DNA of 64,000 nucleotides. It comes from a virus. Numbering within the stretch: position 1 is the first letter of the stretch; every line of letters begins with the position of its first letter. Made by a program: the position numbers and the translations under genes. Below are positions 15,284 to 62,128 of this stretch, piece after piece. The DNA lies in the IMG/VR virus record IMGVR_UViG_3300042876_000902, positions 1 to 64,000 of that record; one strand, written 5' to 3'. Below the pieces are notes generated by a model. It did not search any database and was not told the origin of the DNA. It was given only the letters and a program-made list of their open reading frames with translations.

Positions 15284-17455
15284 ATGGCACAGGCATACAA
15301 GCCGCCGATCAACAGCCGGGACTCGGTCCGCACCGTGGCCCCGGAGGCGTTCGACGTCGATGCCTCCGGCTACGCCGTCCTCGCTGAGGCCCCGGCCGAT
15401 CCGTCGAACCCGAACACACCGATGATCGTCGTCGTCAACGGAACATCGCGCATCAGGGTCACCGGAACGCCCGGGGCCGGTCAGTACAGAGTGCTGAGTC
15501 AGGTGGTCAACACCGGGAACGGCAGCACGGCGACGGAGTATTTGCCGGTGCTTCAGTTTTCGTCGAACGACCGGAACTTGGCTGGCACGGCCGACTACTA
15601 CGCGAGTGGGACTGTGCTCACGCAGCAGTTCTTCGCGATGCTCGTCAACTTCTTGACGCCACTCGTCGTTGCGTCGCGGAGCGCTCTCCCCACGCCGACC
15701 ACGAACCCGTACTTGCGTGGCAGGCCTGGTGACCAAGCGTTCGATCAGAACGGGAATGCGTGGTGGTCGGATGGCACGCAGTGGCGGAACGTCGTCAACG
15801 TTCCTGAGGTCGCGAGCGCGGCAGCGGCGACGGCGGCCTTCGCCGCTGGAGCGATGTTCGTGAAGCGCACCGACATCATCGACGGATCTCCGATCGGTTC
15901 GACGACCACGACGACGGCCGGGCCGACCACTACGACGACGGCCGGGCCGACTACCACGTCCACGACAGGCGGCCCGACCACCACGTCCACGACGTCCGGG
16001 CCGACCACCACGACGACGGCCGGGCCGACCACCACGTCCACGACGGGCGGCCCGACCACTTCCACCACGACCACGACTACGACCACGACCACGACCACGA
16101 CGTCCAGTCCGGCGGTCACTTATTACAACGATTTCGCGTCGACCAATCTGTCAGCATTCACAGCGGATGCCAGCTTCAACGTCTCCGCTGGAAAACTTGT
16201 CAACACAGATGCGACCGCGGCGTGGAAAACTATCACATACGACGGGATCACAACGGCCGACGGTGTCATCGAAGCTGTCGTTCGAGCCAGTGAGACTGTC
16301 TCAAGCCGGTTTTTCGTGTTGGCGCTTCGAGTCAATGGCACTAGCCGGATCCAGCTCATCTGGAATTCGCATGATGAGGGGTCGAACCTCACCGAAGTTG
16401 CGAACGACGCCGGAGTCCAGACGACGCCCAGCTACAATCATCTGGCTGGCCCAGGAACGGATGTTACGCTGAGGCTTCAGATTCAAGGCACCACGGCGTA
16501 CGGGTACATCGACGGAGTTCTTCGGCATACGTTGCTGAACATCAACACCGTCACTGCCGCTGGCAAAGCGCGGATCATGCATTCAAGCAACGGAGTCGGA
16601 ACCAGCTCGTACGACAACCTTCTTGTGTCTACGAACCCAACTGCTGTTTATGTTGCGCCGACCACGACGACGGCGGCCCCGACGACCACCACGACGTCGA
16701 CGACGACGGCAGCCCCGACGACGTCCACCACGTCGACGACGGCGGCCCCGACGACGTCCACCACGTCGACGACGGCGGCCCCGACGACGTCCACCACGTC
16801 GACGACGGCGGCCCCGACGACGTCCACCACGTCGACGACTACCACGTCGACGACGACCACGTCGACGACGACGACCACGACGGTGGCACCACTCTTCTTC
16901 GACAACTACTCGACCGACCAGCTCGCTTCTGCTTACACGCTGGTCGGTACAGGGTGGTCCGTTTCGGGTGGGGTGCTCCGGAACCGCGCGTCGGTCGGCG
17001 ACAACTACGCTCTCTGGAATACCAACGTTCAGAACGGGAGCGTCGAAGCAAAGGTCTACATGGGGGCGACCGGTGGAAGGTTCATCGGTATCGTTCATCA
17101 GTTCATCGATGCGAACAATACCATCTTGATGCAGCTCGACTTGGACGCTGGAACGTCCATCAGGGCGCTCTCTGTCTACCGATTGTCCAGCGGGACTCCG
17201 GTCGAGGTTGGGACCGGGATCGTGGCTGAGTTCGGGCATCCTCAATACGATGCTGACATTGCCGCTCTCTCCGGCCGGAGTCAGTGGATCACGTTGAAGA
17301 TCGTCACCTCCGGGACAAGCATGACGGCATACCTGAACGGTGTTCTGAAGATCTCCGGGACTATGGCTGGTTCGGCATCTGGGAAGCCCGGTGTCCGCGC
17401 GTATTCTGGCGGTGAGTCGCTCCTCTATGACTACGATGACCTGATGATTCGGTAA
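15284..17455 (+). CDS. Mucin-like virion protein: two Thr/Ser/Pro tracts and two beta-sandwich (ConA/LamG-like) domains
   Basis: Roughly 70 aa Thr-rich tracts at about 15898-16108 and 16657-16883, each followed by a domain starting (Y/F)xD(F/N)...(F/W)xVSxGxL.N and ending GK.......YD(N/D)L. Confidence 0.65.
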   Translation: MAQAYKPPINSRDSVRTVAPEAFDVDASGYAVLAEAPADPSNPNTPMIVVVNGTSRIRVTGTPGAGQYRVLSQVVNTGNGSTATEYLPVLQFSSNDRNLAGTADYYASGTVLTQQFFAMLVNFLTPLVVASRSALPTPTTNPYLRGRPGDQAFDQNGNAWWSDGTQWRNVVNVPEVASAAAATAAFAAGAMFVKRTDIIDGSPIGSTTTTTAGPTTTTTAGPTTTSTTGGPTTTSTTSGPTTTTTAGPTTTSTTGGPTTSTTTTTTTTTTTTTSSPAVTYYNDFASTNLSAFTADASFNVSAGKLVNTDATAAWKTITYDGITTADGVIEAVVRASETVSSRFFVLALRVNGTSRIQLIWNSHDEGSNLTEVANDAGVQTTPSYNHLAGPGTDVTLRLQIQGTTAYGYIDGVLRHTLLNINTVTAAGKARIMHSSNGVGTSSYDNLLVSTNPTAVYVAPTTTTAAPTTTTTSTTTAAPTTSTTSTTAAPTTSTTSTTAAPTTSTTSTTAAPTTSTTSTTTTSTTTTSTTTTTTVAPLFFDNYSTDQLASAYTLVGTGWSVSGGVLRNRASVGDNYALWNTNVQNGSVEAKVYMGATGGRFIGIVHQFIDANNTILMQLDLDAGTSIRALSVYRLSSGTPVEVGTGIVAEFGHPQYDADIAALSGRSQWITLKIVTSGTSMTAYLNGVLKISGTMAGSASGKPGVRAYSGGESLLYDYDDLMIR
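16702..16833 (+). repeat. 33-bp tandem repeat x4 (TTAAPTTSTTS)
   Basis: gacgacggc(g/a)gccccgacgacgtccaccacgtc at 16702, 16735, 16768, 16801. Confidence 0.95.
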
Positions 17456-17469
17456 GGAAGGGGCTGCAA

Positions 17470-18780
17470 ATGGGCAACTTCGTAACTTCCAACTCTTCTC
17501 TGTACTCTGACCGGACGGATGGGTCGACCCCGACTGGTGCGTCCTCAGAATGGTCGTCGTCACACGCCAACGGCGTTCGTGATGCCACTTACGATCTTCG
17601 TACTCACATCGGGAATGGCAGGGTTCGAAGTGTGCTCGAGCACAACGCTGACCCGACCGGCGTCGGCGACAGTGCGTCGGCCTTCCAGGCCGCCGTCAAC
17701 GCTTCGCGCCACGTCATCGTCCCGCCCGGGACGTACAAGATCGGTTCAGTGGTCACTCTACCTGATGGCACCTTTGTGGAAGGAAGCGGGTTGGGTGGGG
17801 TCAGCCTGATCAGCCCGTCGTTGTCTGCACGCAGTTTCTTCACGACAGGCGATTGGTGCCGCATCGCCGGGTTTCGGTTCGGGGCCAGCGGAAGCCTCCC
17901 CGGGCTCGGGTCGGGTGGTGCGGAATCGTCCGGTGGAGCGGCGGTCACGATCGCGGGCAACCGCGGGTGGTTGGAGCACCTCGAGTTCCGCAACGTCTAC
18001 AACTGCGTGGTGATTGCCCCCGGTGCTGTGGACGGGGCCGTCTACGTTCTGAACGATTTGGTGGGAAACGACTACGCCGGATCGGCGCTTCAGTGCAACT
18101 CGACGGGGAACCTCATCGGTGACGTCTTCGTCACGAACTTCTCGTTTTACACAGGGCCGCTCAACACGACCGGGACCAACGTCCTGCTGAGTGGATACGT
18201 CGAGGCGTTCTCGATGATGCAGGCGGACGTCATCGGCGGGCAGTACGCGCTGAGGACGACCGGTGGTGGGCAGGGTCACGGAGTTGGCCCGTGCTTCAAC
18301 AAGTTCTCAACCGTCTACTTCGATTCTGCAACGGCGGGAGTCCTTCTCGACAACGCCGTCGGTGCGTGGCTCACGAACTGCTGGTTCTCGTGCCGGCCCG
18401 GCTCCGGGTGCACGGTTCAGAACAGCAATGATGTGTCATTCAACCAGTGCAACTTCGTCAACAACGGCACTCACGGACTTCTGGTGGCGTCGACCGCTGC
18501 CCGCGTTCGAGTCACTGGTGGTTCAAGCATGGCAAACAACTACAGCGCCACCGGCGACGGTTATCACTTCGCGGCGGGGGCCTCAGACTTCATCGTTCAG
18601 GGATGCACCGCATCCAACACTGGGATGAACATCGGAGGCAATCAGCGTTACGGGATCTGCGTTGAGTCCGGAGCGTCCGATCGCTATATCATCCAGGGGA
18701 ACCTCGTCAGCGGGAATGCGACCGGAGGGGTTTCAGACGGCGGTGCTGGATCGAACAAGCTGGTCGCAAACAACTATTGA
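17470..18780 (+). CDS. Right-handed beta-helix (pectate-lyase-like) tailspike/depolymerase
   Basis: RSVLEHNADPTGVGDSASAFQAAVNA....VPPGTYKI entry motif followed by Asn/Gly/Ser-rich beta-helix rungs. Confidence 0.8.
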   Translation: MGNFVTSNSSLYSDRTDGSTPTGASSEWSSSHANGVRDATYDLRTHIGNGRVRSVLEHNADPTGVGDSASAFQAAVNASRHVIVPPGTYKIGSVVTLPDGTFVEGSGLGGVSLISPSLSARSFFTTGDWCRIAGFRFGASGSLPGLGSGGAESSGGAAVTIAGNRGWLEHLEFRNVYNCVVIAPGAVDGAVYVLNDLVGNDYAGSALQCNSTGNLIGDVFVTNFSFYTGPLNTTGTNVLLSGYVEAFSMMQADVIGGQYALRTTGGGQGHGVGPCFNKFSTVYFDSATAGVLLDNAVGAWLTNCWFSCRPGSGCTVQNSNDVSFNQCNFVNNGTHGLLVASTAARVRVTGGSSMANNYSATGDGYHFAAGASDFIVQGCTASNTGMNIGGNQRYGICVESGASDRYIIQGNLVSGNATGGVSDGGAGSNKLVANNY

Positions 18781-18798
18781 ACCAAAGGGCAGGACCCA

Positions 18799-19131
18799 AT
18801 GGGACTCCCGCTATCGCTTCCAGGCACGCTAGATGGGGCGTACAACGGAACGACCACGTCCGCTCCGACAACGACGTCGTCCGCTCCGGCAACCACGACG
18901 TCGGCCGCTCCGGCAACCACGACGTCGGCCGCTCCGGCAACCACGACCACGACGACGTCGGCCGCCCCACGAGGCGAGTATGTGCTATCGTACAGAGGGT
19001 TCAACGTCCCGGTCCGGCCGGGGTCGGGAGCATTCCAACCAGAGGCGGGGCACGGGTCGGACCTCGTAGGGCCGGATGACACCAAACCAATCATCGTCGC
19101 GACCACGAGAGGTAAGAAGGCGATCACATGA
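18799..19131 (+). CDS. Small Thr/Ser/Ala/Pro-repeat protein
   Basis: GTTTSAPTTTSSAPATTTSAAPATTTSAAPATTTTTTSAAP; stop overlaps the glycosyltransferase start (ATGA). Confidence 0.6.
   Translation: MGLPLSLPGTLDGAYNGTTTSAPTTTSSAPATTTSAAPATTTSAAPATTTTTTSAAPRGEYVLSYRGFNVPVRPGSGAFQPEAGHGSDLVGPDDTKPIIVATTRGKKAIT
18881..18946 (+). repeat. 24-bp tandem repeat, about 2.8 copies (APATTTSA)
   Basis: ccgctccggcaaccacgacgtcgg at 18881 and 18905, partial at 18929. Confidence 0.9.
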
Positions 19132-29790: not shown

Positions 29791-30539
29791 TCTGGGCCTT
29801 GAAGCACTGGAGGTTGGTCGGGGTCGCTGCGCTCGCCGTCGCGGTCGTCGTCCTCGCGTTCCTGCTCGCGGCGCAGGTCAAGGCTGCTCGCGGCGCAGAC
29901 CAGAAGCGCGAGGCCGCGGAGCTGCGGCTGGCTGGGGAGGTCGTCGCCCGCGAGGCCACCGAGCGAGAGTTGCGAAAGCTCGTGGCCAAGGACGCCGACT
30001 TGGAGCGCCAGGTGCGAGAGCTGGAGGCGCGCTCGCCCGGCGTCGTCGTGAGGACAGTCGAGCGGGTGGTGACCGTCGAGGTCCCGGCCGTCGGCGTCCC
30101 GCTCCCGCCCGGCCCGCCGTGCCTCCTCCCGGAAGGTGGGCGCGGTGTCGTCAGATGCACGGTGGTCCAGCTGCAGACCGGGCTCGGCAACGTGGTGGTG
30201 AGGGGCCGCGCCGAGGCCGTCCGCACGCACCCGCTCCCGGAGACGGTCATCCTCAGCGGGCCGTTCGACTCGAAGGTGTCCGTGGTCGACGCGGTCCCGC
30301 CCGTCCTCGTGAAGCTGCGCGACCCGCTCTGGGAGCTGGAGGTCGGCGCCGAGTGGCAGGTGCTGAGCCTCAACGGCGGGGCGTCCGCGCGGCTGCAGCG
30401 CGACCCGTCGCTCTACCGGGCCGCCCTCGCGCGCCGCGTGCTGCCGTGGGTCTACGTCGGCGCGGTAGTCTCGACGCCCGACGGGCGCGCGTGGCAGGCC
30501 TCCCTCGGCGCCTCCGGACGCTTCGGCTGGGGCCGCTAG
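29787..30539 (+). CDS. Spanin-like membrane protein
   Basis: N-terminal TM helix and coiled coil, then beta-rich C-terminus; last gene of the lysis cassette. Confidence 0.5.
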   Translation: MIWALKHWRLVGVAALAVAVVVLAFLLAAQVKAARGADQKREAAELRLAGEVVAREATERELRKLVAKDADLERQVRELEARSPGVVVRTVERVVTVEVPAVGVPLPPGPPCLLPEGGRGVVRCTVVQLQTGLGNVVVRGRAEAVRTHPLPETVILSGPFDSKVSVVDAVPPVLVKLRDPLWELEVGAEWQVLSLNGGASARLQRDPSLYRAALARRVLPWVYVGAVVSTPDGRAWQASLGASGRFGWGR

Positions 30540-30562
30540 GCCGCTGGCAAGCCCCGAAGCAA

Positions 30563-30600
30563 CGACGCCCGACCCGGAGAGCCTCCCGGGTCGGGCGTCG
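30563..30600. terminator. Hairpin between convergent operons (likely bidirectional terminator)
   Basis: Perfect 15-bp stem cgacgcccgacccgg / ccgggtcgggcgtcg. Confidence 0.75.
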
Positions 30601-30656
30601 CGTTACCAGCGGGTCCCCGTTCGTTTAACGGGGCCTCCCGCGAGGCCTCGGAAGGC

Positions 30657-31187
30657 CTAGTAGTCGACCTTCGCGTGGGGGTGATACTCCCACTCCCGCC
30701 CGGCCTTCTCAGCCCAGAGGCGGTTGAAGATCTCCATGTGCTCCGGGACGTACTCCTCCATGAACACGATGCGGCGGCAGCTGGTGTTCATCAGGAGCTT
30801 CGTGCATGTCGAGCACGGGGCGAGCGTCACGTAGCAGGTGCTGATCGCCTGGGCGTCCCGGCACTGGAGGAGGGCGTTCTGCTCGGCGTGGATCGCCTCG
30901 CACCCGACCCCGCCCGACTGCGGCTGCCCGAGGGGCGCGAGGGCCCCGGAGCATGCGTTACCGTGGTACACGGTAGTCTGCACTGCCCGGTGGGCCCCTT
31001 CGGCGTTGTCGACACTGGTGACCTCGTTGCAGTGAGGCAACCCGCTCGCGACCCCGTTGTACCCGGTCGCGAGGACGTGCCCGTGCCGGTCGACGAGGAC
31101 GCACCCGACGTGGCGCCGGAGGCAGGTCGAGCGGGTCGCCACGAGCTTCGCCATCGCGACGAAGTACGTGTCCTTGTCGGGCCTCAC
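30657..31187 (-). CDS. dCMP deaminase family protein
   Basis: RSTCLRRHVGCVLV, ATGYNG, HAEQNAL, PCSTCTK zinc motifs; GTG start overlapping the upstream stop. Confidence 0.93.
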   Translation of the reverse strand: MRPDKDTYFVAMAKLVATRSTCLRRHVGCVLVDRHGHVLATGYNGVASGLPHCNEVTSVDNAEGAHRAVQTTVYHGNACSGALAPLGQPQSGGVGCEAIHAEQNALLQCRDAQAISTCYVTLAPCSTCTKLLMNTSCRRIVFMEEYVPEHMEIFNRLWAEKAGREWEYHPHAKVDY

Positions 31188-32035
31188 GGGAGCGGCCTCC
31201 ACTGACAGGTCTCGTCGGCCGTCCCCTCGCGGAGCGCCATGAGGTCCCGGCGCAGGGTCTCCCAGTCGCCCTTCCGCACGAGGGCGTCGGGCGTTGGCTC
31301 CGGGACCGGCCCGGGGTCCGACTCGAGCACCTCCTTCACCTTGTCGATGTCCTTCAGGTAGAGGTGGCTCGACGTCGCGTTGATGGTCATGGTCCCGAGG
31401 CCGACCGTCAGCTCGCGAGGGAGACCCCAGTTGTGCATGCACGCGACGAAGAGGGCGACCGTCGCGAAGCTGAACATGTCGTAGGGAAGCCCCATCCATC
31501 CGTCGCTCGACCGCATGAAGACGTGTAGGTGGAGCAGGTCCCGCCGGATCGAGAAGCTCATCGCGACCGTGCAGGGGATGTCCTTGCTCGGCAGCGGGTT
31601 CCGCTCCCAGATGGTGAGCACCGCCTGGCGGGTGTCCCGGTCCTTGCTGAGCTGCTGGACAACGTACGGGGTCTGCGCCCGGACCTTCGGGCCGTAGGCG
31701 CCGTTGAGGGTCACCCCGTCGTCGCTGAACCGCCCGTAGCTCGGCGCGAAGCGGGCGAGGGAGGCGAGGTCATTCTGGCCGTTCACGATCCACAGCGCCT
31801 CGGCGGCCATGAACTGCGCCGAGAGCTTCCGGGCCGGGGAGGTCACCACCGCCCGGCTCAGGTCGACGGACACGAGCTGGCCGTGGAGCATCTCGACGGT
31901 GTCGATCCCGCGCGGGGAAACCTTCTGCCCCTCCCGGCAGATGGCCATCATGGCCTCCCGCCAGGCGGCATCGCCGCACGGGGCCGGGGTCCCGGGCTGC
32001 GGAGTGTATGACTGGGCGAGCATAACGTCGGTCAT
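31184..32035 (-). CDS. Thymidylate synthase homolog, probable dCMP (hydroxy)methyltransferase
   Basis: FSDDG...GAYGP, DTRQAV, DIPCT (catalytic Cys), MRSSD..GLPYD (Asp where ThyA has Asn), SSHLY. Confidence 0.85.
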   Translation of the reverse strand: MTDVMLAQSYTPQPGTPAPCGDAAWREAMMAICREGQKVSPRGIDTVEMLHGQLVSVDLSRAVVTSPARKLSAQFMAAEALWIVNGQNDLASLARFAPSYGRFSDDGVTLNGAYGPKVRAQTPYVVQQLSKDRDTRQAVLTIWERNPLPSKDIPCTVAMSFSIRRDLLHLHVFMRSSDGWMGLPYDMFSFATVALFVACMHNWGLPRELTVGLGTMTINATSSHLYLKDIDKVKEVLESDPGPVPEPTPDALVRKGDWETLRRDLMALREGTADETCQWRPLP

Positions 32036-32559
32036 GAGTCGAACCTCCCTTCGGCGATGTGGATGGCGAAGGCGGGCGCCCCGCCCTCCCACTGGGTGCG
32101 GTCGTACTTGAGGACGGGGAGCGAGGTCTTCATTGCGGCGTACCCGTCCCACACGCGGCGGAGCTGGTCCGTCCGCTTGAGGTACTCCTCCTGCGGCCTG
32201 CCCTCGAACGACTTGGCGCAGACCTCGAACGGCGGGAGGCAGAGGACCACCACGCCGTCGCACGCTGCTGCGATGCCCTCGAGCCACCCCGCCGTGTTCG
32301 GGCTCAGCCGGTTCAGCCCGGCCCGCATCACGGCGCCGTAGATGGGCTCGGAGAGCCACGACCGGTCGAGCACCGTGTCGACGTACCCGTGGGTTGCGGG
32401 CATCATGCTCACCTCGTACACGTCGGCGAGGTCTTGAGGGGAGACCTTGAGGTAGGAGCCATGGTGGATGAGCATCCCTTGGACGGCGCGGGTGAGCGCC
32501 TGGGCCAGCGTGGTCTTGCCCGAGCCGTCCGGGCCTTCGAGGATGAAGAGGCGGCTCAT
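32032..32559 (-). CDS. dNMP kinase-like P-loop protein
   Basis: FILEGPDGSGKTT, VLDRSWLSEPIYG; ATGA-coupled to the TS homolog. Confidence 0.85.
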   Translation of the reverse strand: MSRLFILEGPDGSGKTTLAQALTRAVQGMLIHHGSYLKVSPQDLADVYEVSMMPATHGYVDTVLDRSWLSEPIYGAVMRAGLNRLSPNTAGWLEGIAAACDGVVVLCLPPFEVCAKSFEGRPQEEYLKRTDQLRRVWDGYAAMKTSLPVLKYDRTQWEGGAPAFAIHIAEGRFDS

Positions 32560-33044
32560 GGCGTCGCCTCCTTCGGCGCTCCGGCGTCGTCGCGCCGGTT
32601 GACGTACGTGCTCCGGTCGAGCCCCTCGGCATGGAGGTGAACCAGGTGGCTCGGCGGCGACCACCCCGGCGGCTTGATGAGGTCGACCGCGTGCCCGCGG
32701 TGCCCGACGCCGCGGATCTTGGACATGTTCGCCCGGTCGACCTCGGCCCACGAGCGGCGCCAGACCCGGCGGAGGCCGAGCATCACGGCCGTGCCTTTGA
32801 GGAAGACGCCGATGTCGATGAGCGCGTCCGTCATCCCCGCGATGTCGTCGCTCTCGACCGCGTCCTCCAGCTCGTCCACCTCCTCGCGGAGGCACTGCAG
32901 CCGCTCGCGCATCTTCCGCTTCGTGAGGAAGCCCGGCTCCTCGAACGAGAGGATGCCGAACTTGAGGTGCATCGCGCGGACGTCTTCCAGCTCCGGGTCG
33001 AGCCCGCGCAGGACGCGGATCGCATTCCACAGTCTCTTGAACAT
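32556..33044 (-). CDS. MazG-like/all-alpha NTP pyrophosphohydrolase
   Basis: LREEVDELEDA...DALID...W.EV.RANMSK...DLIKPPGW. Confidence 0.88.
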   Translation of the reverse strand: MFKRLWNAIRVLRGLDPELEDVRAMHLKFGILSFEEPGFLTKRKMRERLQCLREEVDELEDAVESDDIAGMTDALIDIGVFLKGTAVMLGLRRVWRRSWAEVDRANMSKIRGVGHRGHAVDLIKPPGWSPPSHLVHLHAEGLDRSTYVNRRDDAGAPKEATP

Positions 33045-33124
33045 CGCTGCTCCTTTCGTGCTCTGGAAACAACAAGGGCCCGCCGCGTGCATCCGCGGCA
33101 GGCCCGGTCGATGTTGCCGGCTGC

Positions 33125-34075
33125 TTAGGCCGCCTTCTTCTCGGGCGGCTTCAGCCCCTTCTTCTTGAGGTCGTTGCGGTACCACGCGACGTACGTGCGC
33201 TTGAAGCTCGGGAACTCCTTGCTGACCTTGTCGAAGATGACGTCGTCCGAGAACCGCCCGGACATGATCAGCTCCTTCGCGACGCTCGCGGCCGACCGGC
33301 GCTCGCCCTTCTCCTTCGGCGCCTTGGCGGTGGCGCCCGCGCCCTTCTTCACGGACTTCATCGAGGCGGCGGCGTTGCCCTTGCCCGTCTTCTTCGCGGT
33401 GGTGATGCTCGGCTTCTTGGCCATGGCTCTCTCCTTTGCGCTGCTGTTGACGTTGATGAGCTTCTCCAGCTCTTCCACTGCGCGCTCGGTGGCTCCCCGG
33501 TACTGCATGTACTCGGTGAACAGCGTGGCGCACCTCGCCACCGGGTAACCCTCGATCTCCTTGTACTTCTTGTCGAACTCCCGCGCCGGGAGGGTCTTGA
33601 CCGTGAACGGCCCCTCCCCCTCGGCGTCGAGCGTCAGGAACTCTACCACCTTCATGTCGTGCTCGCCACCACCACTTTCAGGGAGGCGCCTCCCCAGCTC
33701 GATGCAGACCCGGTTGCTGAAGTCCTTGCAGACGACCGCCTGCTCCTGCGCCTTGAGCTGGCTCTTCGTGAACCGCTCGACCTCCCGGAACGTGGCGTTC
33801 ACGGTTGGGCACGTGGAGAGGTGGTGCGTGATGGGCTGCTTGCACTCGCCGCACTTGGGCGCCTGGCCGTTGCCGAAGGCGGGCCCCTGCTTCTTGGCCT
33901 CGGGCGCCTTCGTGCTCTTGGTGGGCGGTGCCTTCGCGGGCGCGGCGGGCTTCTTCGTGCTCTTCACCTTCGCGGGCGGAGCCTTCTTCACCTTCGTGCT
34001 CTTGACCTCCTTCTTCGCGGCCTTCGCGGGCTTCTTGCTGCTCTTCGTGTCCTTCCTCGTCCCCTTCTTCGCCAT
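33125..34075 (-). CDS. Lys/Ala-rich (histone-H1-like) protein with Zn-finger and C-terminal WYR domain
   Basis: MAKKGTRKDTKSSKKPAKAAKK..., CGEC....HH...C, C-terminal YVAWYRNDLKKKG; GAGGAGG RBS; possible internal start at 33424. Confidence 0.7.
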   Translation of the reverse strand: MAKKGTRKDTKSSKKPAKAAKKEVKSTKVKKAPPAKVKSTKKPAAPAKAPPTKSTKAPEAKKQGPAFGNGQAPKCGECKQPITHHLSTCPTVNATFREVERFTKSQLKAQEQAVVCKDFSNRVCIELGRRLPESGGGEHDMKVVEFLTLDAEGEGPFTVKTLPAREFDKKYKEIEGYPVARCATLFTEYMQYRGATERAVEELEKLINVNSSAKERAMAKKPSITTAKKTGKGNAAASMKSVKKGAGATAKAPKEKGERRSAASVAKELIMSGRFSDDVIFDKVSKEFPSFKRTYVAWYRNDLKKKGLKPPEKKAA

Positions 34076-34119
34076 GTGCATCCTCCTCAGCCAGAGGGTT
34101 GGACCAATCAACTTCGGCG

Positions 34120-34148
34120 ACCCTAGCAAGACCGGTTTGGGGAGTAAA
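34120..34148 (-). promoter_or_regulatory. Candidate sigma70-type promoter
   Basis: TTTACT-17bp-TAGGGT with extended -10 TG, 45 bp upstream of ATG 34075. Confidence 0.5.
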
Positions 34149-34216
34149 GGGAGTTGATTGACGCAGCCCCCTTGGTACTGGCCCCAGCCCCGGACTGATG
34201 AAGTCGTCTTTGTGAA

Positions 34217-35797
34217 CTACTCGCCACTCCGCCGCGCCGCCCGGTACTCCTTCAGCGCGGCGAACATCGCATTCTGACCCTTCTCCTTCCGGTGGAGAGC
34301 GCGGATGACCGTCTCGTCCACCGTCCGCCGGGCCGCGATGGTATGCTCGAAGACCCGGCTCTCCTTCTGGCCGGACCGAAGCTCCCGTCGGATGAACTGG
34401 TCCTTCATCTCGTAGTCCCATGAGGCCGTGTACCAAGCCGCGTGGTGCCCTCCGCCCTGAAGGTTGAGCCCGTGGCCCATGGACGCGGGGTGACCGCAGA
34501 GGACCGGGATCTCCTTCCGGTTCCAGCGGGCGACGATGTCAGCGGTCTCCTTGGGGGAGGTCCCGGAGCCCAGCACCTCGGCCTCGGGCACCGCCTCTCG
34601 GATGCGCTCGAGGTCGTGGTGGAACTCGTAGCCGACGAGGAGCGACTTTCCTTGCAGCTCGTCGATGAGGTCCACGAGGGCCTCGGTCTTCTCGTCGTGC
34701 AGGTGCTTCGTCACCCGCTCCAGCTTCCCCCGCCGGACCTTCTCGATGTAGATCCCTCCCGACGCCACCTGCCGGCACTTGTTCGAGGCGACCGCGGAGT
34801 TGGCAGCCGTCACCTCTTCCCGGTCGATGATGGTGAACAGCTCCTCCTCCAGCTCGTCGTACACTTTGCGGACCTGGGGCGGGAGGTCGACCCACAGGGT
34901 GTTCGGGACCAGCTTGGGGAGCCCGGGGAGGTGGTCCTCAGCCTTCATGGCGAGAGCGAGGTTGCGCATCCGCTCGTAGATGGCGGCCTCCGTCTCCTTG
35001 CTCTTCGGGACCCACGTGTACCCGCCGAAGCCCTTGGGTGTGAAGAACGTGAAGCGGTAGTGGGTGATGTACTGGCCGAGCGTCTTGCCGAGGTCGATGG
35101 TGTACGCCTGGCCGAAGAGCCCCTCCAGCCCGTTCGCGGCCGGGGACCCGGTCAGCCCGTACCTCCTGCGGAACTGGGAGAGGAACGGCTTGAGCGCTTT
35201 GAACCGCTTGGTCTTCGCATGCTTCATCTTCGACAGCTCGTCGACCACGAGCGTGTCGACGCCCTTCTTGTGGATGAGGAAGTCGAGCGGGGCCCCGCGC
35301 TTCGTCCGACACTTGCACCGGGCCTTGCCGTTCCCGGCGCAGGCAGACAGGTGGGACTGATGCCCGCAGTCGGAGCAGGCGGTGATCCACTGGAGCCCGT
35401 CGAAGTTCACGACATAGAGGTTCCCGTCGTCCTGAAGGCGGCTCATCTTGTGGTCGCCGTGGAGCAGCACCTCTTGGAAGTCGTCGCGGAACTCCTCCCA
35501 CTTCGCCAGCTCACCGTCGCCGTCGTGCGTCCACACGCCGTACGCGACCCGGAGCGGCGCGACGACGAGGGCGTTCTTCACCGCCTTCGCCTTCCGCATC
35601 GCCTTCAGTCCGGCCAGCATGATGGACGTCTTCCGCAGCCCCGGCTCGAGGAGCAGCATGGCCTCGGGCCTGGTGACCACGAACCGCGCGGCCTCCCGCT
35701 GGTACGGCGCGGGGACCCACGGCTGCGCGACGATTGAAGAGGAACCCTGCGACGTAGCCGACTGCTTCTTCTGCGGTGTCGAACGTCTTGATGACAT
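34217..35797 (-). CDS. SNF2-like superfamily 2 helicase
   Basis: PYQ, LEPGLRKT, LVVAPLRV, VVDELS, LTGSP, HPASMGHGLNLQ. Confidence 0.92.
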   Translation of the reverse strand: MSSRRSTPQKKQSATSQGSSSIVAQPWVPAPYQREAARFVVTRPEAMLLLEPGLRKTSIMLAGLKAMRKAKAVKNALVVAPLRVAYGVWTHDGDGELAKWEEFRDDFQEVLLHGDHKMSRLQDDGNLYVVNFDGLQWITACSDCGHQSHLSACAGNGKARCKCRTKRGAPLDFLIHKKGVDTLVVDELSKMKHAKTKRFKALKPFLSQFRRRYGLTGSPAANGLEGLFGQAYTIDLGKTLGQYITHYRFTFFTPKGFGGYTWVPKSKETEAAIYERMRNLALAMKAEDHLPGLPKLVPNTLWVDLPPQVRKVYDELEEELFTIIDREEVTAANSAVASNKCRQVASGGIYIEKVRRGKLERVTKHLHDEKTEALVDLIDELQGKSLLVGYEFHHDLERIREAVPEAEVLGSGTSPKETADIVARWNRKEIPVLCGHPASMGHGLNLQGGGHHAAWYTASWDYEMKDQFIRRELRSGQKESRVFEHTIAARRTVDETVIRALHRKEKGQNAMFAALKEYRAARRSGE

Positions 35798-37815: not shown

Positions 37816-39819
37816 TCAGGCCGCGAGCTTCGTCGCGACCAGCTGGCCCTTCTTGTCGTATGGCTGCAGCGCCCCGAAGCTCTCGTCGGACCACGTCCCC
37901 TCCGAGAGCATCGCGACGTCGAACTCGATGGACTCCATGCAGCTCCGCAGCAGCTCCATCCCTTCCCGCGCCTTGGCCCTCGGGACCGAGGCGACCATCT
38001 CGTCGTGGATCGACAGCAGCAGCTTCATCCACTTCGGCTTTGCGTTGTGAATCCGGATCATCGCCTCCTTCGTGCAGTCCGCCGCCGACCCTTGGATGAG
38101 GGTATTCACCATCTTGTAGTCGAAGTGGACGATCTTCCCGTCGATGACCTTCGGCTCCTCGCAGAAGATCTCCCGCCCTCCCCACGTGACGATGGGCTCC
38201 TTGGCCTTCGCCCGCCTCTCCATCTCCCGGTACATCTCCTTCAGACCGGGGTAGATGCCGTAGATGGCGTTCCGCACCTGCCTGGCCTCGTTCACCTCCA
38301 GCCCCGACCGCTCGGCCATCAGGCCGACGCCCATCCCGTACATGATGCCGAGGTTGAAGCCCTTGACGACCTTGCGCTTGTAGTGTCGACCCGCCGCCTC
38401 CAACTTCGCCTTCGCGTCGTCATGGAAGTCGATCCACGGGTTGGCGAGGTACGCCTCCAGCAGCCTCCCGCCGCCCTCCACTGCCTGCTCGAAGTGGGCG
38501 AGGATCCGCGGCTCCTGCTGCGAGTAGTCGCGGTCGATCAGCACGTCGTCCTCACCCCACGGGAGCACGTAGGCCCGGACGTTGGGCGCGGGCGGGAGGA
38601 GGAATGGTGCGTCGGGTAGGCTCGCCTTGAGCTTCGCCGCCTCGTCATCCGTCACTTCGTGCTCTCGAGCCCACTCGGCCGTAACCTCGTGCCTGAAGAG
38701 CGGCTCGAACTCCTTGGCCATGTTCTGGAAGTTGGGCGACGACTGCGCGCGGCCGGTCTTCGCGCCGCCGGTGCCCTTGCCCTTGTCCCGCCTGGTCGTG
38801 TACCAATCGGTGTAGATGAACCCGCCCGATGCGGACGCCGTCTCCAGCCACGGGCGGATGAACGTCTTCAGGACCGTCGAGAGCTGGGCCCGCCGCTTGA
38901 GGACGTGGAGGATCTGCCGGTCCTTGATGCCCGCCGCGAGGGCGTCCTTGTTCACCTCCCACTTGCCCTTCGATGTCTTGTTCAGCTCCGCGACCCCGGC
39001 CCGGACGAGCGCGGCCCCGAGCTGGTCCGGGCTGTTCCAGTTGATCTCGCCGCGGACCCGGAGGCGCTTCGCCAGCCACTGGTCGATCTTCGAGAGCACC
39101 ATGGAGACGCCGTGCTCGTCGCGGGCCAGTGCCTCGACGTCGACCCGCACTCCCTGGTTCTCCATCTCCCAGATGACCGGGAGCAGGCGCCGCTCGCGAT
39201 CGTAGGCGCCGGTCATCCCGCGCCGCTCCAGCTCGGGCAGCACTTTGGCCCCGAGCCCGTGGGTGCGGTCGGTGTCGCCCTCCGCGTACTCCGCCACCAG
39301 CTCGGCCGGGGCGAAGGCGATGTACGCACCCACGTAGAAGTCGCTGTCCTTCGAGGTCGACAGCTTGATGCCGCGCGAGGCGAGGGGCTGGTTCTTCATC
39401 AGCCAGTCCTCGACGGCGTCGCGCTCCTCCTGCTTCCACCCGAGGAGGCGGTCGGCCGACGGCTTGAGGGCGTAGGTGGATGCGTACGGGTCCTTGAGGA
39501 AGAGCGCGGGCATCGTGTCATGGTACCGGTCCCACGGGAGGAACGGGAGGTCGAGGTGCACCGCGGCGACCTCAGCGTCGAACTTGACGTGATGCATGAG
39601 GATGGGGCGCCCGGAGTCGTACGCCTCCCCGACCGCACGCCGCGCCTCCTCCCACGTGGAGTTGTTCTTGCCGACCTCGTGGCCCCAGCTGTAGTACCGG
39701 CTCTTGCCCGTCCCGAGCTTCACGGACACGCCGACCGGAGAGGGCGGGTGGTGCGGACGGCCGATGATCGGCAGCGACTCGAAGTCGATGGTCGCCGCTT
39801 CCCGCGGGTTGAAGATCAT
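37816..39819 (-). CDS. polA: DNA polymerase family A
   Basis: Exo IDFE and HDTM; KTGRAQSSPNFQN; motif A DYSQQEPR; motif B RKVVKGFNLGIMYG; NTLIQGSAAD; motif C IHDE. Confidence 0.96.
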   Translation of the reverse strand: MIFNPREAATIDFESLPIIGRPHHPPSPVGVSVKLGTGKSRYYSWGHEVGKNNSTWEEARRAVGEAYDSGRPILMHHVKFDAEVAAVHLDLPFLPWDRYHDTMPALFLKDPYASTYALKPSADRLLGWKQEERDAVEDWLMKNQPLASRGIKLSTSKDSDFYVGAYIAFAPAELVAEYAEGDTDRTHGLGAKVLPELERRGMTGAYDRERRLLPVIWEMENQGVRVDVEALARDEHGVSMVLSKIDQWLAKRLRVRGEINWNSPDQLGAALVRAGVAELNKTSKGKWEVNKDALAAGIKDRQILHVLKRRAQLSTVLKTFIRPWLETASASGGFIYTDWYTTRRDKGKGTGGAKTGRAQSSPNFQNMAKEFEPLFRHEVTAEWAREHEVTDDEAAKLKASLPDAPFLLPPAPNVRAYVLPWGEDDVLIDRDYSQQEPRILAHFEQAVEGGGRLLEAYLANPWIDFHDDAKAKLEAAGRHYKRKVVKGFNLGIMYGMGVGLMAERSGLEVNEARQVRNAIYGIYPGLKEMYREMERRAKAKEPIVTWGGREIFCEEPKVIDGKIVHFDYKMVNTLIQGSAADCTKEAMIRIHNAKPKWMKLLLSIHDEMVASVPRAKAREGMELLRSCMESIEFDVAMLSEGTWSDESFGALQPYDKKGQLVATKLAA

Positions 39820-40756: not shown

Positions 40757-41164
40757 CTACGCCTTCACGATGCTGATCTTCTTCTTGATGAACTTCGTGA
40801 TGCCCGGGACCTTCTTCCCGGCTGCCCACATCTCCGCGATGGCCGTGGACGACAGCCGCTTCTGGATGAGGTGGAACGCGCCGGTCTTCCTCACGTACTT
40901 GTAGAAGGCCTCGTCGCCGCCGTCCTTCGCGAACACCGGGATGTCCTTCTTCACCAGCTTGGCCTTCCCCTTCTTCCCGGCGACGATCTCCGCCTCCATC
41001 CCCTCGAGCACTGAGATGAGGTGAAGCTCGAGTGCGTTCTCCTCCGCCTCGTACTTCGCCACCTCCTTCTGCAGCTTGGCCTTCTTCTCGCCCAGCTCCT
41101 TGAACCGGTCGACGCAGGCGCCGGGCGTCTTCGGGAACGTGAACTGCTTGACCTCGTCGCTCAC
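40757..41164 (-). CDS. Hypothetical replication-module protein
   Basis: GTG start coupled to thyX stop; coiled coil then LIQKRLS......GKKVPG. Confidence 0.6.
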   Translation of the reverse strand: MSDEVKQFTFPKTPGACVDRFKELGEKKAKLQKEVAKYEAEENALELHLISVLEGMEAEIVAGKKGKAKLVKKDIPVFAKDGGDEAFYKYVRKTGAFHLIQKRLSSTAIAEMWAAGKKVPGITKFIKKKISIVKA

Positions 41165-41817
41165 GCGTTCACCTCGCGGTCGAAGACCTCCGGGCAGAGG
41201 TCGATCAGCTCCCGCCGCACCATCCCGGCGACCTCCCGCATCTGCGGGTGGGCTGCGGGCGCCGTCCGGAGCTTCAGGAAGTGGAGCCACTCCCGGAAGT
41301 TCATCTTGACGCAGATCTCCGTCTTGAGGCACGTCGGGAGAACCGACCGCGCGATCTGCGGCGCCGCCCCGTGGTCGACGAGGTTCAGGTACGCCGCCTC
41401 AGCGCGGAGCATCGCGTCCTCCCATTCCCGGCGCTGCCATTCGTCGAGCCCCGGAGGCATGATCACCGCGATCTCCCCGCCGCGCTTCTCACTCGCGTAG
41501 TTGCAGTAGCGAGTGCTCTCCTGGGCGTAGGAGGCGATCCGGTGGCGGACGATCTCGTGGGAGACGCCGCGGTCGCAGACGATGCGGAACGTCGCGTCAC
41601 CGAACTCGAGCATCGCGTCGTGGTGCATGCCCGCGAGCTTCGTGATGAGCTTCGCCGCGGAGCCGGGGGAGATGAGCCCCTCCGACTTGTAGCAGGTCCG
41701 CGCCGCCGCCTCGATGGCGAGGGCGCCCTCGGAGGCCGACCGCATCAGCTCCTCGGGCGGTGTCTGGGCGAGGACCGACGCCGCGATGAGCGTCGCGCTC
41801 TGGCTGACGATCTTCAC
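41161..41817 (-). CDS. thyX: Flavin-dependent thymidylate synthase
   Basis: AARTCYKS, H...LEF, RGVSHEIVRHRIASYAQESTRY, ARSVLP, NFREWLHFLKLR...AHPQMR. Confidence 0.96.
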   Translation of the reverse strand: MKIVSQSATLIAASVLAQTPPEELMRSASEGALAIEAAARTCYKSEGLISPGSAAKLITKLAGMHHDAMLEFGDATFRIVCDRGVSHEIVRHRIASYAQESTRYCNYASEKRGGEIAVIMPPGLDEWQRREWEDAMLRAEAAYLNLVDHGAAPQIARSVLPTCLKTEICVKMNFREWLHFLKLRTAPAAHPQMREVAGMVRRELIDLCPEVFDREVNA

Positions 41818-42135: not shown

Positions 42136-42807
42136 TCACTCCCCTCTCGTCTGCTTGTGATGGTTGTACCTCTCCATGATCGCTTCGTGCACCGCCTCGA
42201 CCGGGCGGGTTCCGTCCACGACGATCCACGACTCGTCGCTCATCGCCTCGTCATGCCACAGCTGGTCGTACCCGTCGACCACTTGCTCGATGAAGCCGGG
42301 CTTCCCCTCGTAGCGGTCGGGGTTCCCGCGGGCCGCGAGGCGCTCGACGCACACGCTCGCCGGGACGTGGACGAGCACGTTGAGGTCGGCCTGCGGGAGC
42401 AGCTCATGCATCTGCTTCAGGTGCTCGAGGTTGAGCCCGTCGGCGCTGCCGTACACGAGGCCCGACTGGTAGTACCGGTCGCAGACCATCCCCGCGACGC
42501 GACCGAGCCCGAGGTGGGCCCGGCGGAGCTTCCGCCCGACCTCCATCCGGTTCGCGAGCATCATCGCTTGGAACATCAGGGCGTCGTCGAGCACATCCGC
42601 TTCGATGAACTCGACCGAAGCGGCGTGGTCGCCGACGTCGGCGTAGGCCCCCAGCTTCAGCTGGCCCTTCAGGTGCCGGTCGATGAGCTTCCCGATCGGA
42701 GTGCTCCGGTCCGGGAACCGCTGGAGGTCGAAGCCCAGCCGGTCCGCGAGCATCTTCGCCTGGGTGGACTTGCCCGAGCCGTCCGGGCCTTCGATGGTGA
42801 TGATCAT
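42136..42807 (-). CDS. tmk: Thymidylate (dTMP) kinase
   Basis: ITIEGPDGSGKSTQ, RFPDRSTPIG, ANR, VCDRYYQSGLVY, DRYE. Confidence 0.92.
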   Translation of the reverse strand: MIITIEGPDGSGKSTQAKMLADRLGFDLQRFPDRSTPIGKLIDRHLKGQLKLGAYADVGDHAASVEFIEADVLDDALMFQAMMLANRMEVGRKLRRAHLGLGRVAGMVCDRYYQSGLVYGSADGLNLEHLKQMHELLPQADLNVLVHVPASVCVERLAARGNPDRYEGKPGFIEQVVDGYDQLWHDEAMSDESWIVVDGTRPVEAVHEAIMERYNHHKQTRGE

Positions 42808-43232
42808 GAGACCTCCGGGACGTACTTCTTCACGGCGAAGGCGTTGTCGAGCCACGTGACGTAGCGGACCGCGCCCGCGTTCGTCTCGAAGTGCTTCACC
42901 CGCGGGTCGAAGTAGAAGATCGGCCACTGCCTCGCGGGCAGCCCGCCGATCACGATCGGCAACTTCCCGAGCACGAGCCCGGCGGTCAGCTCCCCGAACC
43001 CGGCGCGGCAGTTGTCGTCGTGGATGAGCATGACGCACTCGGAGTCCTCGACGCCCCGGAGGTCGAACTCCGCCGCACCCTGCAGGTAGTTCTGCAGCGC
43101 GAGCCCACCCTTCCCGGCGGCGGAGTGTCTGGTCCAGTCCGCCGTGATCGTATGACCCGCTTCGCGGAGCATCTGCTGGAGGACCCGGACCTCCTCGGCG
43201 CGCTCGAACTTCCCTGCTGCGTACACGTTCAC
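42804..43232 (-). CDS. Nucleoside 2-deoxyribosyltransferase / nucleotide N-glycosidase-like protein
   Basis: VYAAG, DL..V...E.V.L, G...ELTAG..LGK.PIV. Confidence 0.7.
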   Translation of the reverse strand: MNVYAAGKFERAEEVRVLQQMLREAGHTITADWTRHSAAGKGGLALQNYLQGAAEFDLRGVEDSECVMLIHDDNCRAGFGELTAGLVLGKLPIVIGGLPARQWPIFYFDPRVKHFETNAGAVRYVTWLDNAFAVKKYVPEVS

Positions 43233-61324: not shown

Positions 61325-62128
61325 CTACGCGCGGCGGAGCACCCACGCGCAGTTGCTCGATGCCTGCGGGTACTTCGGCGCGAGGAAGTTGGCGAGCACC
61401 TCCCACGGATACCAGGTCAGCAGCTCCTCCACGAGCTTGCGCTCGTCGGGCGTCATCACCTTCTTCATCGCGTTCGCGGTCATGAAGGTGCCGTGGACGC
61501 GCTCGACCCGGAGCCCGACCGACTCGATGTAGTATCGCAGCTCGTCGAAGCGGTACTCGTGGATGTGGTTCGCCGCCATGTGCTTCTCGTTGTAGACGGG
61601 CGTCGAGAGGAGCGCCGTGCCGTCCGGCTTCAGCACGCCGCGGATCCCCTGAAGCAGCTTGATGCCGTCGGTGACCCCCATGTGCTCGATCGCCTCGAAG
61701 CAGGTGACGAGGTCGAACGGTCCCGGCGCCCGCGCTGCGCGCTCGGTCCCGTCAGAGAGGAGCGGTTTCATCAGCTCCTTCCACCGGCTCGTGAAGTCGA
61801 ACTCGTCAAACACTCGAGTCCACGCGATGCCCGGCTTCTTCGGGATGCGGTCGACGTCGACCCCGACGTACAGCTCGGGGACCGTCGTCAGCGTGTGGAG
61901 CAGCACCTTCGGCATCATGACGTCCGGGCCACAGCCGACGTCGAGGACCCGCATCCCCTGCCGGACGAAGCGGACCGCGTAACTCCACCGGAACCAGTGG
62001 GCGGCGTAGTCCCGGTGGACGTACTTCCCGTGCACCCCGCCCTCGCGGAGCGAGGTGGAGTCGAAGCGCCGCGCCTCACGCTTCGTCGACGGGTGAGGCT
62101 TCGGCGCTGGCCAGCTCTTCTTGCTCAT
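61325..62128 (-). CDS. Class I SAM-dependent methyltransferase (non-DNA-type motifs)
   Basis: H..R, RVLDVGCG, YVGVD, FDLVTCFEAIEH, LKPDG..LLSTP, NHIHEY. Confidence 0.88.
   Translation of the reverse strand: MSKKSWPAPKPHPSTKREARRFDSTSLREGGVHGKYVHRDYAAHWFRWSYAVRFVRQGMRVLDVGCGPDVMMPKVLLHTLTTVPELYVGVDVDRIPKKPGIAWTRVFDEFDFTSRWKELMKPLLSDGTERAARAPGPFDLVTCFEAIEHMGVTDGIKLLQGIRGVLKPDGTALLSTPVYNEKHMAANHIHEYRFDELRYYIESVGLRVERVHGTFMTANAMKKVMTPDERKLVEELLTWYPWEVLANFLAPKYPQASSNCAWVLRRA

Follow-up and report, generated by a model that had tools for sequence, protein, structure and literature searches.

We analysed a 64,000-nucleotide stretch of viral DNA (the window; positions 1 to 64,000 of IMG/VR record IMGVR_UViG_3300042876_000902), in which an operon of four genes on the minus strand (30657-33044) encodes a MazG-like pyrophosphatase, a P-loop kinase, a thymidylate synthase (TS) homolog and a deoxycytidine monophosphate (dCMP) deaminase. 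Sequence comparisons suggest, with a probability that we put at about 0.65, that the operon serves a T4-style, pre-replicative replacement of deoxycytidine (dC) by 5-hydroxymethyl-deoxycytidine (5hm-dC), the product of the TS homolog being 5-hydroxymethyl-dCMP (5hm-dCMP) for the phage DNA polymerase PolA. The broader claim that cytosine is modified at C5 at the nucleotide level is one that we hold with considerably more confidence. It had been made in an initial annotation of the sequence, and is supported by an aspartate at position 177 of the TS homolog (Escherichia coli ThyA numbering) and by a published statistical hallmark, the enrichment of co-localized TS(Asp), PRA-PH and dCMP deaminase genes in cytosine-modified metavirome contigs (PMC8670742; bioRxiv 10.1101/2024.12.05.627091). 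Between the 5-methyl and 5-hydroxymethyl products which that annotation had left side by side, positions 143, 147 and 169 of the TS homolog, the lack of a DHFR gene and the restriction phenotype of the related phage AXL3 favour 5hm-dCMP and disfavour the methylated nucleotide.

Operon layout and active site of the TS homolog

The window covers 64 kb from the start of an 81,968-bp record that is rated complete by CheckV (G+C content ~66%). The stretch is present as contigs in four rhizosphere metagenome runs, and no RNA run is listed among those that contain it. The plus strand carries the structural genes as far as ~30.5 kb; from 30.6 kb on, replication and nucleotide genes follow on the minus strand. 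Within the operon, successive genes overlap by 4 nt (ATGA, ATGA and GTGA) and each is preceded by a Shine-Dalgarno-like sequence. Four translationally coupled genes had been described here, and all boundaries, overlaps and family assignments were borne out:

33044..32556, minus strand: MazG/PRA-PH-like pyrophosphatase, 162 amino acids (aa); ribosome-binding site AAGGAG; PF01503 1.3e-7; phrog_671 6e-20
32559..32032, minus strand: kinase with Tmk/dNK-type P-loop fold, 175 aa; ATGA overlap; phrog_761 'thymidylate kinase' 3.6e-14
32035..31184, minus strand: TS homolog, 283 aa; ATGA overlap; PF00303 Thymidylat_synt 4.2e-21
31187..30657, minus strand: dCMP deaminase, 176 aa; GTG start, GTGA overlap; PF00383 dCMP_cyt_deam_1 5.4e-19 (68.4 bits); phrog_174 3e-38

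The GTG start of the deaminase is supported by its homologs in Stenotrophomonas phage AXL3, the nearest cultured relative, and in the Manatee Spring contig ctUtU524, both of which align from their own residue 1. All locus counts given here refer to the 80 nearest IMG/VR loci. Since the same order was found in most of these related viral loci, the four-gene arrangement is not due to chance.

The TS homolog is a member of the TS superfamily (PF00303), with the catalytic Cys146 and residues E58, Y94, R166, H207 and Y209 invariant in alignments A1 and A2. Its AlphaFold model had a predicted local distance difference test (pLDDT) score of 93, and Foldseek matched it to TS folds at a probability of 1.0. 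The nearest fold was that of MilA, a cytidine monophosphate (CMP) 5-hydroxymethylase, with a template modelling (TM) score of 0.75 and 28-30% identity. MilA was also the closest solved relative by sequence (8e-21, versus 3e-12 for the best true TS). We located the key residues of the TS homolog as follows:

31580-31582, minus strand: Asp152, equivalent to ThyA position 143
31571-31573, minus strand: Cys155, equivalent to position 146
31502-31504, minus strand: Asp178, equivalent to position 169
31478-31480, minus strand: Asp186, equivalent to position 177

The motifs DIPCT (31582-31568, with Cys155 at 31573-31571) and MRSSD..GLPYD (with Asp186 at 31480-31478) are exactly as first reported. The comparison with ThyA and T4 gp42 drawn at that time also holds in our alignment, where E. 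coli ThyA reads APCH and LPFN and T4 gp42 reads MCT and RND. Alignment A1 contained references from annotated records (E. coli ThyA, T4 gp42, the Xp12 TS homolog, SPO1 gp29, SP10 dUMP hydroxymethylase and M6 gp58; dUMP, deoxyuridine monophosphate), and the MilA residues were read from its pairwise PDB search alignment. In ThyA numbering, and with the nucleotide product of each enzyme (5hm, 5-hydroxymethyl; 5m, 5-methyl; dTMP, deoxythymidine monophosphate), the diagnostic positions are:

TS homolog of the window, predicted 5hm-dCMP: 143 D, 146 C, 147 T, 169 D, 177 D
T4 gp42, 5hm-dCMP: 143 D, 146 C, 147 T, 169 D, 177 D
MilA, 5hm-CMP: 143 D, 146 C, 147 T, 169 D, 177 D
Xp12 TS homolog, 5m-dCMP: 143 N, 146 C, 147 P, 169 D, 177 D
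SPO1 gp29, SP10 and M6 gp58, 5hm-dUMP: 143 D, 146 C, 147 N, 169 D, 177 N
E. coli ThyA, dTMP: 143 L, 146 C, 147 H, 169 D, 177 N

According to published work, N177D selects dCMP, an acidic residue at 143 (L143D/E) accompanies hydroxymethyl products, and D169N marks flavin-dependent 5-hydroxy-dCMP synthases (PMC13326640; PMC8670742). The first of these rules agrees with the Asn-to-Asp switch towards dCMP that had been invoked for this gene. With Asp186 at position 177, Asp152 at 143 and Asp178 at 169, the TS homolog carries the residues of a dCMP 5-hydroxymethylase of the T4 gp42 type. Asp143 was found in all five characterized hydroxymethylases aligned (T4 gp42, MilA, SPO1 gp29, SP10 and M6), and the methyl-forming enzymes ThyA and Xp12 have Leu and Asn, respectively. 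When T4 gp42 was compared with a profile of the query clade, it matched at 98% probability with the diagnostic columns in register.

The complete signature of the TS homolog is R126, D143, C146, T147, S167, D169 and D177, in which Ser176 and Arg136 of the protein correspond to ThyA 167 and 126'. MilA prefers ribo-CMP owing to Ala176 and Lys133' (PMC5175136). The combination of S167 and R126 therefore argues for a deoxyribose preference, as in deoxy-specific enzymes. Taken together, the active-site signature predicts a deoxy-specific, cytosine-specific, folate-type hydroxymethylase.

Four other activities were considered for the TS homolog, and its residues speak against each of them. A ribonucleotide (CMP) hydroxymethylase of the MilA/BcmA type is disfavoured by Ser176 and Arg136 in place of Ala and Lys, and a 5-hydroxy-dCMP synthase of the RB69 gp48 type by Asp178, which is kept where Asn169 would be expected. 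A dUMP hydroxymethylase is disfavoured by Asp177, as SPO1 gp29, SP10 and M6 gp58 all have Asn177 and form a separate clade in the tree. The Xp12 dCMP methyltransferase has N143/P147, not the D143/T147 found here, and the genome gave no DHFR_1 match.

To examine conservation, we searched 1.84 billion cluster representatives with the TS homolog and obtained 7,617 relatives, 600 of them at E <= 1e-30. The D-C-T-D-D pattern was present in ~150 of 160 aligned rows (the 150 best matches and 10 references), and at least 588 IMG/VR stretches carried the motifs. The seven-residue signature was invariant in all 80 nearest loci. The deaminase directly follows the TS gene in 72 of these, MazG lies upstream of TS in 71 and the kinase stands between MazG and TS in 56. 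The genes usually run PolA, SNF2 helicase, Lys-rich protein, S-adenosylmethionine (SAM) methyltransferase, MazG, kinase, TS and deaminase; the window keeps this order except for the SAM methyltransferase (61325-62128), which is 28 kb away.

Partner enzymes and the proposed pathway

In T4, dC is replaced by 5hm-dC through gp56 (dCTPase/dUTPase), gp42 (dCMP hydroxymethylase), gp1 (dNMP kinase) and Cd (dCMP deaminase). The same four activities are predicted for the operon. The MazG-like protein has a PRA-PH/MazG domain with acidic metal-binding motifs and weak PDB matches to the MazG-like proteins DR2231 and 3nl9; it is 40% identical to AXL3 gp30 and 32% identical (2e-11) to the gene upstream of TS in Xp12.

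The kinase carries the motifs EGPDGSGKT (P-loop) and DRSWLSEPIYG, with D65, R66, Y74 and G75 invariant in alignment A3. Its AlphaFold model (pLDDT 96) best matched the folds of SPbeta YorR, deoxynucleoside kinases (dNK/dCK) and thymidylate kinases, at a Foldseek probability of 1.0. Its homologs carry PF02223/PF01712 and the JGI name is thymidylate kinase; the Pfam Tmk score of the protein itself was below threshold. No BLAST match to T4 gp1 was obtained. To M6 gp54, a DNA kinase for 5-hydroxymethyl-deoxyuridine (5-HMUDK), the kinase gave only a match of E=0.25 over 141 aa, and phrog_800 scored 5.5e-4. The Tmk-type motifs, like the fold, point to a kinase acting on mononucleotides or nucleosides. 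On these features, the protein is best read as a mononucleotide-level kinase and thus as a likely analogue, not a homologue, of gp1.

Both zinc motifs of the deaminase are intact (HAEQNA for HAE and PCSTC for PCxxC). The protein matched Streptococcus mutans dCMP deaminase (2hvv; 1.5e-16) and T4 Cd (1vq2; 5.5e-11) in PDB, aligned with T4 Cd over its full length, insertion included, and was 51% identical to AXL3 gp27.

Three further genes that had been noted as separate from the operon were all found in the window:

41161..41817, minus strand: ThyX, flavin-dependent thymidylate synthase, a separate dTMP route; PF02511 5.7e-49
42136..42807, minus strand: canonical dTMP kinase Tmk; PF02223 1.5e-22
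37816..39819, minus strand: PolA, family-A DNA polymerase; PF00476 3.9e-45

PolA shares 49% identity, across 97% of its length, with the polymerases of AXL3, Pseudoxanthomonas phage PW916 and the Manatee contig, so that the same polymerase lineage accompanies the module. In 47 of the 80 loci, no more than 8 kb separates it from the TS gene.

We propose the following pathway. The MazG-like pyrophosphatase would convert dCTP into dCMP and pyrophosphate, which would remove the canonical precursor and feed the next enzyme; this step is suggested by pathway logic. As the active-site signature of the TS homolog suggests, Cys155 would then attack C6 of dCMP, and a methylene group would be transferred from 5,10-methylene-tetrahydrofolate (THF). 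Resolution of the exocyclic methylene by water, not by hydride, would give 5hm-dCMP. The kinase would phosphorylate this product to 5hm-dCDP, a host nucleoside diphosphate kinase would form the triphosphate, and PolA of the phage would incorporate 5hm-dC. Since ThyX and Tmk are present, the simplest role of the deaminase is that of T4 Cd: it would convert part of the dCMP pool into dUMP for ThyX and Tmk. Alternatively, it might act on the modified nucleotide. Deamination of the modified nucleotide had been raised in the initial annotation and matches a published hypothesis, but with ThyX and Tmk encoded the phage has less need of it.

A non-reductive hydroxymethylase and ThyX both regenerate THF. 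No DHFR_1 match was found in the 82-kb genome, whereas in Xp12 and AXL1 a DHFR gene adjoins the TS gene. The absence of DHFR favours a 5-hydroxymethyl product.

Product of the pathway and the AXL3 phenotype

AXL3 has the same module order as the window and also encodes ThyX. Identities to its proteins were 42.5% for TS, 51% for the deaminase, 44% for the kinase, 40% for MazG and 49% for PolA. The module was annotated by the authors of AXL3 as a thymidylate pathway. Of 37 restriction enzymes, 35 failed on the DNA of this phage, each of them with G/C in its site, and only the AATT and TTAA cutters worked; the DNA resisted digestion by KpnI, by Eam1105I (an isoschizomer of AhdI) and by XbaI (PMC7504290). 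In another study, AhdI and KpnI completely digested Xp12 DNA containing 5-methylcytosine (5mC), and T4gt DNA containing 5-hydroxymethylcytosine (5hmC) was resistant to both (PMC7653180, Table S1); XbaI cut T4gt DNA partially (PMC7653180). By this enzyme pattern, the modification of the lineage is linked to C, behaves unlike 5mC and is at least as obstructive as 5hmC. In the literature that we searched, we found nothing linking AXL3 to hydroxymethylcytosine and no identified modification for its DNA.

Several points weigh against 5hm-dCMP as the product. T4 gp42 is only ~21% identical to the TS homolog and sits on a very long branch (length near 10 in the tree), and overall identity to the Xp12 dCMP methylase (30%) matches that to MilA (28-30%). 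Because gp42 is distant and Xp12 and MilA are equally similar, the product assignment rests on few active-site residues and on circumstantial evidence. The rule for position 143 is a correlation across ~7 characterized enzymes, and for the dCTPase and the 5hm-dCMP kinase the specificities are presumed on pathway logic. In a 2024 preprint, 5m-dCMP was made by five of the seven TS homologs with a linked deaminase that were tested, and >60% of the active deaminases adjoining such TS genes preferred 5m-dCTP or 5hm-dCTP (bioRxiv 10.1101/2024.12.05.627091); given these preferences, the predicted dCMP deaminase may not be a plain one. Two genes resembling C5-DNA-methyltransferases (see below) would lack a target in fully 5hmC-containing DNA and are hard to reconcile with complete replacement of C. 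Finally, no biochemical or liquid chromatography-mass spectrometry data on the AXL3-like clade were found in the literature searched.

Phylogeny had been suggested as a check. In the tree, Xp12 and the dUMP hydroxymethylases fell outside the query clade, and Xp12 grouped with ThyA. T4 gp42 could not be placed in the tree, and for this reason we do not claim a common origin with gp42.

A first alternative keeps 5hm-dC as an intermediate. The SAM methyltransferase, the C5-methyltransferase-like proteins found at its position in other loci, or both, would then tailor it into an undescribed hypermodification, for example by methylation of the hydroxymethyl group. The candidate genes are:

61325..62128, minus strand: virus-specific class-I SAM methyltransferase; PF13489 (Methyltransf_23) 5.7e-14; 38% identity to AXL3 gp31 (L001:3638-4462), E 9e-48
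62125-62718, minus strand: C5-DNA-methyltransferase-like gene, 197 aa; phrog_757; PPC and ENP motifs; coupled to the SAM methyltransferase
62719-63918, minus strand: C5-DNA-methyltransferase-like gene, 399 aa; PF00145; PPCSAFS and ESV motifs; coupled to the SAM methyltransferase

Immediately upstream of MazG, 40 of the 80 loci have a homolog of the SAM methyltransferase, as do AXL3, PW916 and Manatee ctUtU524, and a C5-methyltransferase-like gene takes this slot in 14 of the 80. Nearly all Atlas neighbours of the SAM methyltransferase are viral, and its weak PDB matches are to the O-methyltransferases UbiG and HEN1. From this neighbourhood, the SAM methyltransferase is a possible accessory of the pathway. 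Resistance of AXL3 DNA that is at least equal to that of 5hmC DNA would fit a cytosine hypermodification beyond 5hm-dC. We regard such a hypermodification as unlikely. In the 82-kb genome, a carbamoyltransferase domain was not found, nor were T4 beta-glucosyltransferase and Tet/JBP domains, for which the searches had no positive control. For the methyltransferase cluster, a carboxymethylcytosine system of the CmoA/CmoX type (PMC12783734) was also tried and rejected, as the SAM methyltransferase had no CmoA match in NCBIfam or PDB.

A second alternative to 5hm-dCMP is an Xp12-type pathway, in which a dCMP methyltransferase makes 5-methyl-dCMP, 5mC replaces C, and the deaminase turns part of the 5m-dCTP into dTTP. 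Asp177 is common to both TS homologs, which are 30% identical; the core order (MazG-like, TS, deaminase) is the same in Xp12, and 5m-dCMP was the product of most of the deaminase-linked TS homologs in the preprint cited above. However, D143 and T147, as in hydroxymethylases, are found in the TS homolog and in 80 of 80 relatives where Xp12 has N143 and P147, and the tree places Xp12 with ThyA, away from the query clade. The genome lacks the DHFR gene that Xp12 and AXL1 encode beside TS, and dTMP is already supplied by ThyX and Tmk. Moreover, KpnI and Eam1105I were blocked on AXL3 DNA at sites that are fully cut in Xp12 5mC DNA. An Xp12-type product thus appears improbable.

Alternatively, 5hm-dCMP or 5hm-dCTP could be deaminated to a 5-hydroxymethyl-deoxyuridine (5hm-dU) nucleotide, giving DNA with 5-hydroxymethyluracil (5hmU) or a derivative of it, with or without 5hmC. 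This would fit the deaminase gene that immediately follows TS in 72 of 80 loci, and many cis deaminases of such TS homologs select for 5m-dCTP or 5hm-dCTP and in vivo give rise to 5hm-dU (bioRxiv 10.1101/2024.12.05.627091). In addition, a gene next to Tmk with a fold like that of nucleoside 2-deoxyribosyltransferase (NDT) or DNPH1 could handle 5hm-dUMP, which is a speculative link. ThyX and Tmk, on the other hand, indicate normal dTMP synthesis, and neither a 5-HMUDK-like DNA kinase nor another thymidine-hypermodification gene was recognized. AXL3 DNA resisted cutting only where sites contain G/C, and AATT and TTAA were cleaved. The 5hmdU-containing DNA of SP8 resists only ~8% of enzymes (PMC7653180), and hence 5hmU cannot explain the AXL3 phenotype. 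We consider deamination to 5hmU quite doubtful.

Ordinary thymidylate supply with canonical DNA, as annotated for AXL3 (dCMP deaminase to dUMP, ThyA-type TS to dTMP, then thymidylate kinase), fits the family-level annotations but is very improbable. The uracil-selecting Asn177 has given way to Asp, His147 and Leu143 are not kept either, and nothing in the alignment corresponds to the C-terminal tail of TS. In addition, the phage already has ThyX and a bona fide Tmk, and the resistance of AXL3 DNA to restriction at G/C sites is global.

Known systems and surrounding genes

The favoured 5hm-dC pathway shares with T4 its four predicted activities, the residues D143/C146/T147/D169/D177 and a deaminase that aligns fully with Cd. 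Unlike the scattered T4 genes, those described here form one overlapping operon, and dTMP would come from ThyX and not from Td. The kinase and pyrophosphatase have no detectable sequence similarity to gp1 and gp56, and no homologs of these two T4 proteins were detectable by sequence. No T4-type glucosyltransferase was detected, in a search that lacked a positive control. MilA of Streptomyces rimofaciens (PDB 5b6d, 5jnh, 5jp9) has the same five residues and is the closest solved relative, but its Ala176 and Lys133' favour ribo-CMP where the TS homolog has Ser and Arg, and it belongs to mildiomycin antibiotic biosynthesis and not to a phage replication module.

The Xanthomonas phage Xp12 resembles the window in core order, in its homologous MazG-like and TS proteins, in Asp177 and in a siphovirus replication module near the helicase. 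It differs in N143/P147, in encoding DHFR, in lacking a kinase in the module and in making 5mC, and KpnI and AhdI digest its DNA, in contrast to that of the AXL3 lineage. We noted that Xp12 QNN97215 (L006:46207-46980), annotated as 'hydrolase (HAD superfamily)' and located directly upstream of the Xp12 TS gene, is a homolog of the MazG-like protein. The Xp12 module thus reads MazG-like, TS, deaminase and DHFR.

The closest cultured or deposited relatives of the module are AXL3 gp27-gp31, PW916 and ctUtU524, which have the same order and ThyX. Their identities to the proteins of the window are 42-46% for TS, 51-53% for the deaminase, 44% for the kinase, 40% for MazG and 49% for PolA. In these three, the SAM methyltransferase lies inside the operon, not 28 kb away, and the kinase bears an extra C-terminal domain of ~160 aa, whereas the kinase of the window stands alone. 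This domain (AXL3 gp29 C-terminus, L001:5502-5987) also occurs in 25 of the 80 loci and had no Pfam or PDB sequence match; it is absent from the window kinase, and no copy was found elsewhere in the genome. The PW916 and Manatee records lack an annotation for the gene that carries it. The published names ('thymidylate synthase', 'deoxyuridylate hydroxymethyltransferase') disregard the Asp177 signature.

An identical domain co-localization with an Asp177-type TS is known from the MetaGPA signature (Thymidylat_synt, PRA-PH and dCMP_cyt_deam_1; Yang et al. 2021 and the 2024 preprint). Those studies characterized carbamoyl-5hmC and 5mC-selective deaminases, whereas the clade described here is AXL3-like, from soil or rhizosphere and of high G+C content. 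The pathway concept (the T4 paradigm) and the module type are already documented, and the phage adds a new member. Because the concept is established, the gain is incremental. Our analysis proposes a concrete chemistry that can be tested, the full or near-full exchange of C for 5hmC, for a widespread siphovirus-like clade of soil and water that includes the phage therapy candidate AXL3. It also corrects database annotations that read the module genes as thymidylate synthesis. The predicted compact, non-T4 versions of a dCTPase and a 5hm-dCMP kinase could help to make modified DNA.

Upstream of the operon, a Lys/Ala-rich protein of 318 aa (33125-34081, minus strand) had no family match and is related to AXL3 gp32 and gp34. 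In 29 of the 80 loci a conserved copy separates the nucleotide module from the SNF2 helicase. One element separates its gene from the start of MazG:

33076..33105, minus strand: GC-rich hairpin with a 12 bp stem, followed by a weak T tract, TTGTTGTTTC

As MazG starts only ~30 nt further, the hairpin might serve as a leaky terminator or form an RNA-end element. A search of 30300-34300 gave no sigma-70-like promoter. Outside the window, positions 70097-73029 of the record (minus strand) encode a DUF3854/DUF5906 primase-helicase-like protein (733 aa) and then a sigma-70 family factor (244 aa). This phage-encoded sigma factor may explain why a sigma-70 consensus promoter is missing near the operon.

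The NDT/DNPH1-like gene mentioned above (42804-43232, minus strand) encodes a protein of 142 aa, overlaps the Tmk start by 4 nt and gave blank Pfam and PDB sequence searches. Its fold in the protein atlas is that of NDT/DNPH1-like proteins (feature score 0.96, TM ~0.8). The protein could sanitize or recycle a modified pyrimidine nucleotide.

In the tail module (15284-22519, plus strand), Thr-rich repeat proteins and a beta-helix spike are encoded together with fusions of GT2 with Methyltransf_24 and of GT17 with Methyltransf_24 and GT2. A dTDP-glucose 4,6-dehydratase-like (RmlB-like) gene lies at 74041-75042 of the record (minus strand; TIGR01181 1e-76). Glycosylation of 5hmC in DNA was also considered for these genes and is a less likely possibility. 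The location of the glycosyltransferase island in the tail module, beside Thr-rich proteins, favours glycosylation of virion proteins, in which the island and the RmlB-like gene are likely to take part.

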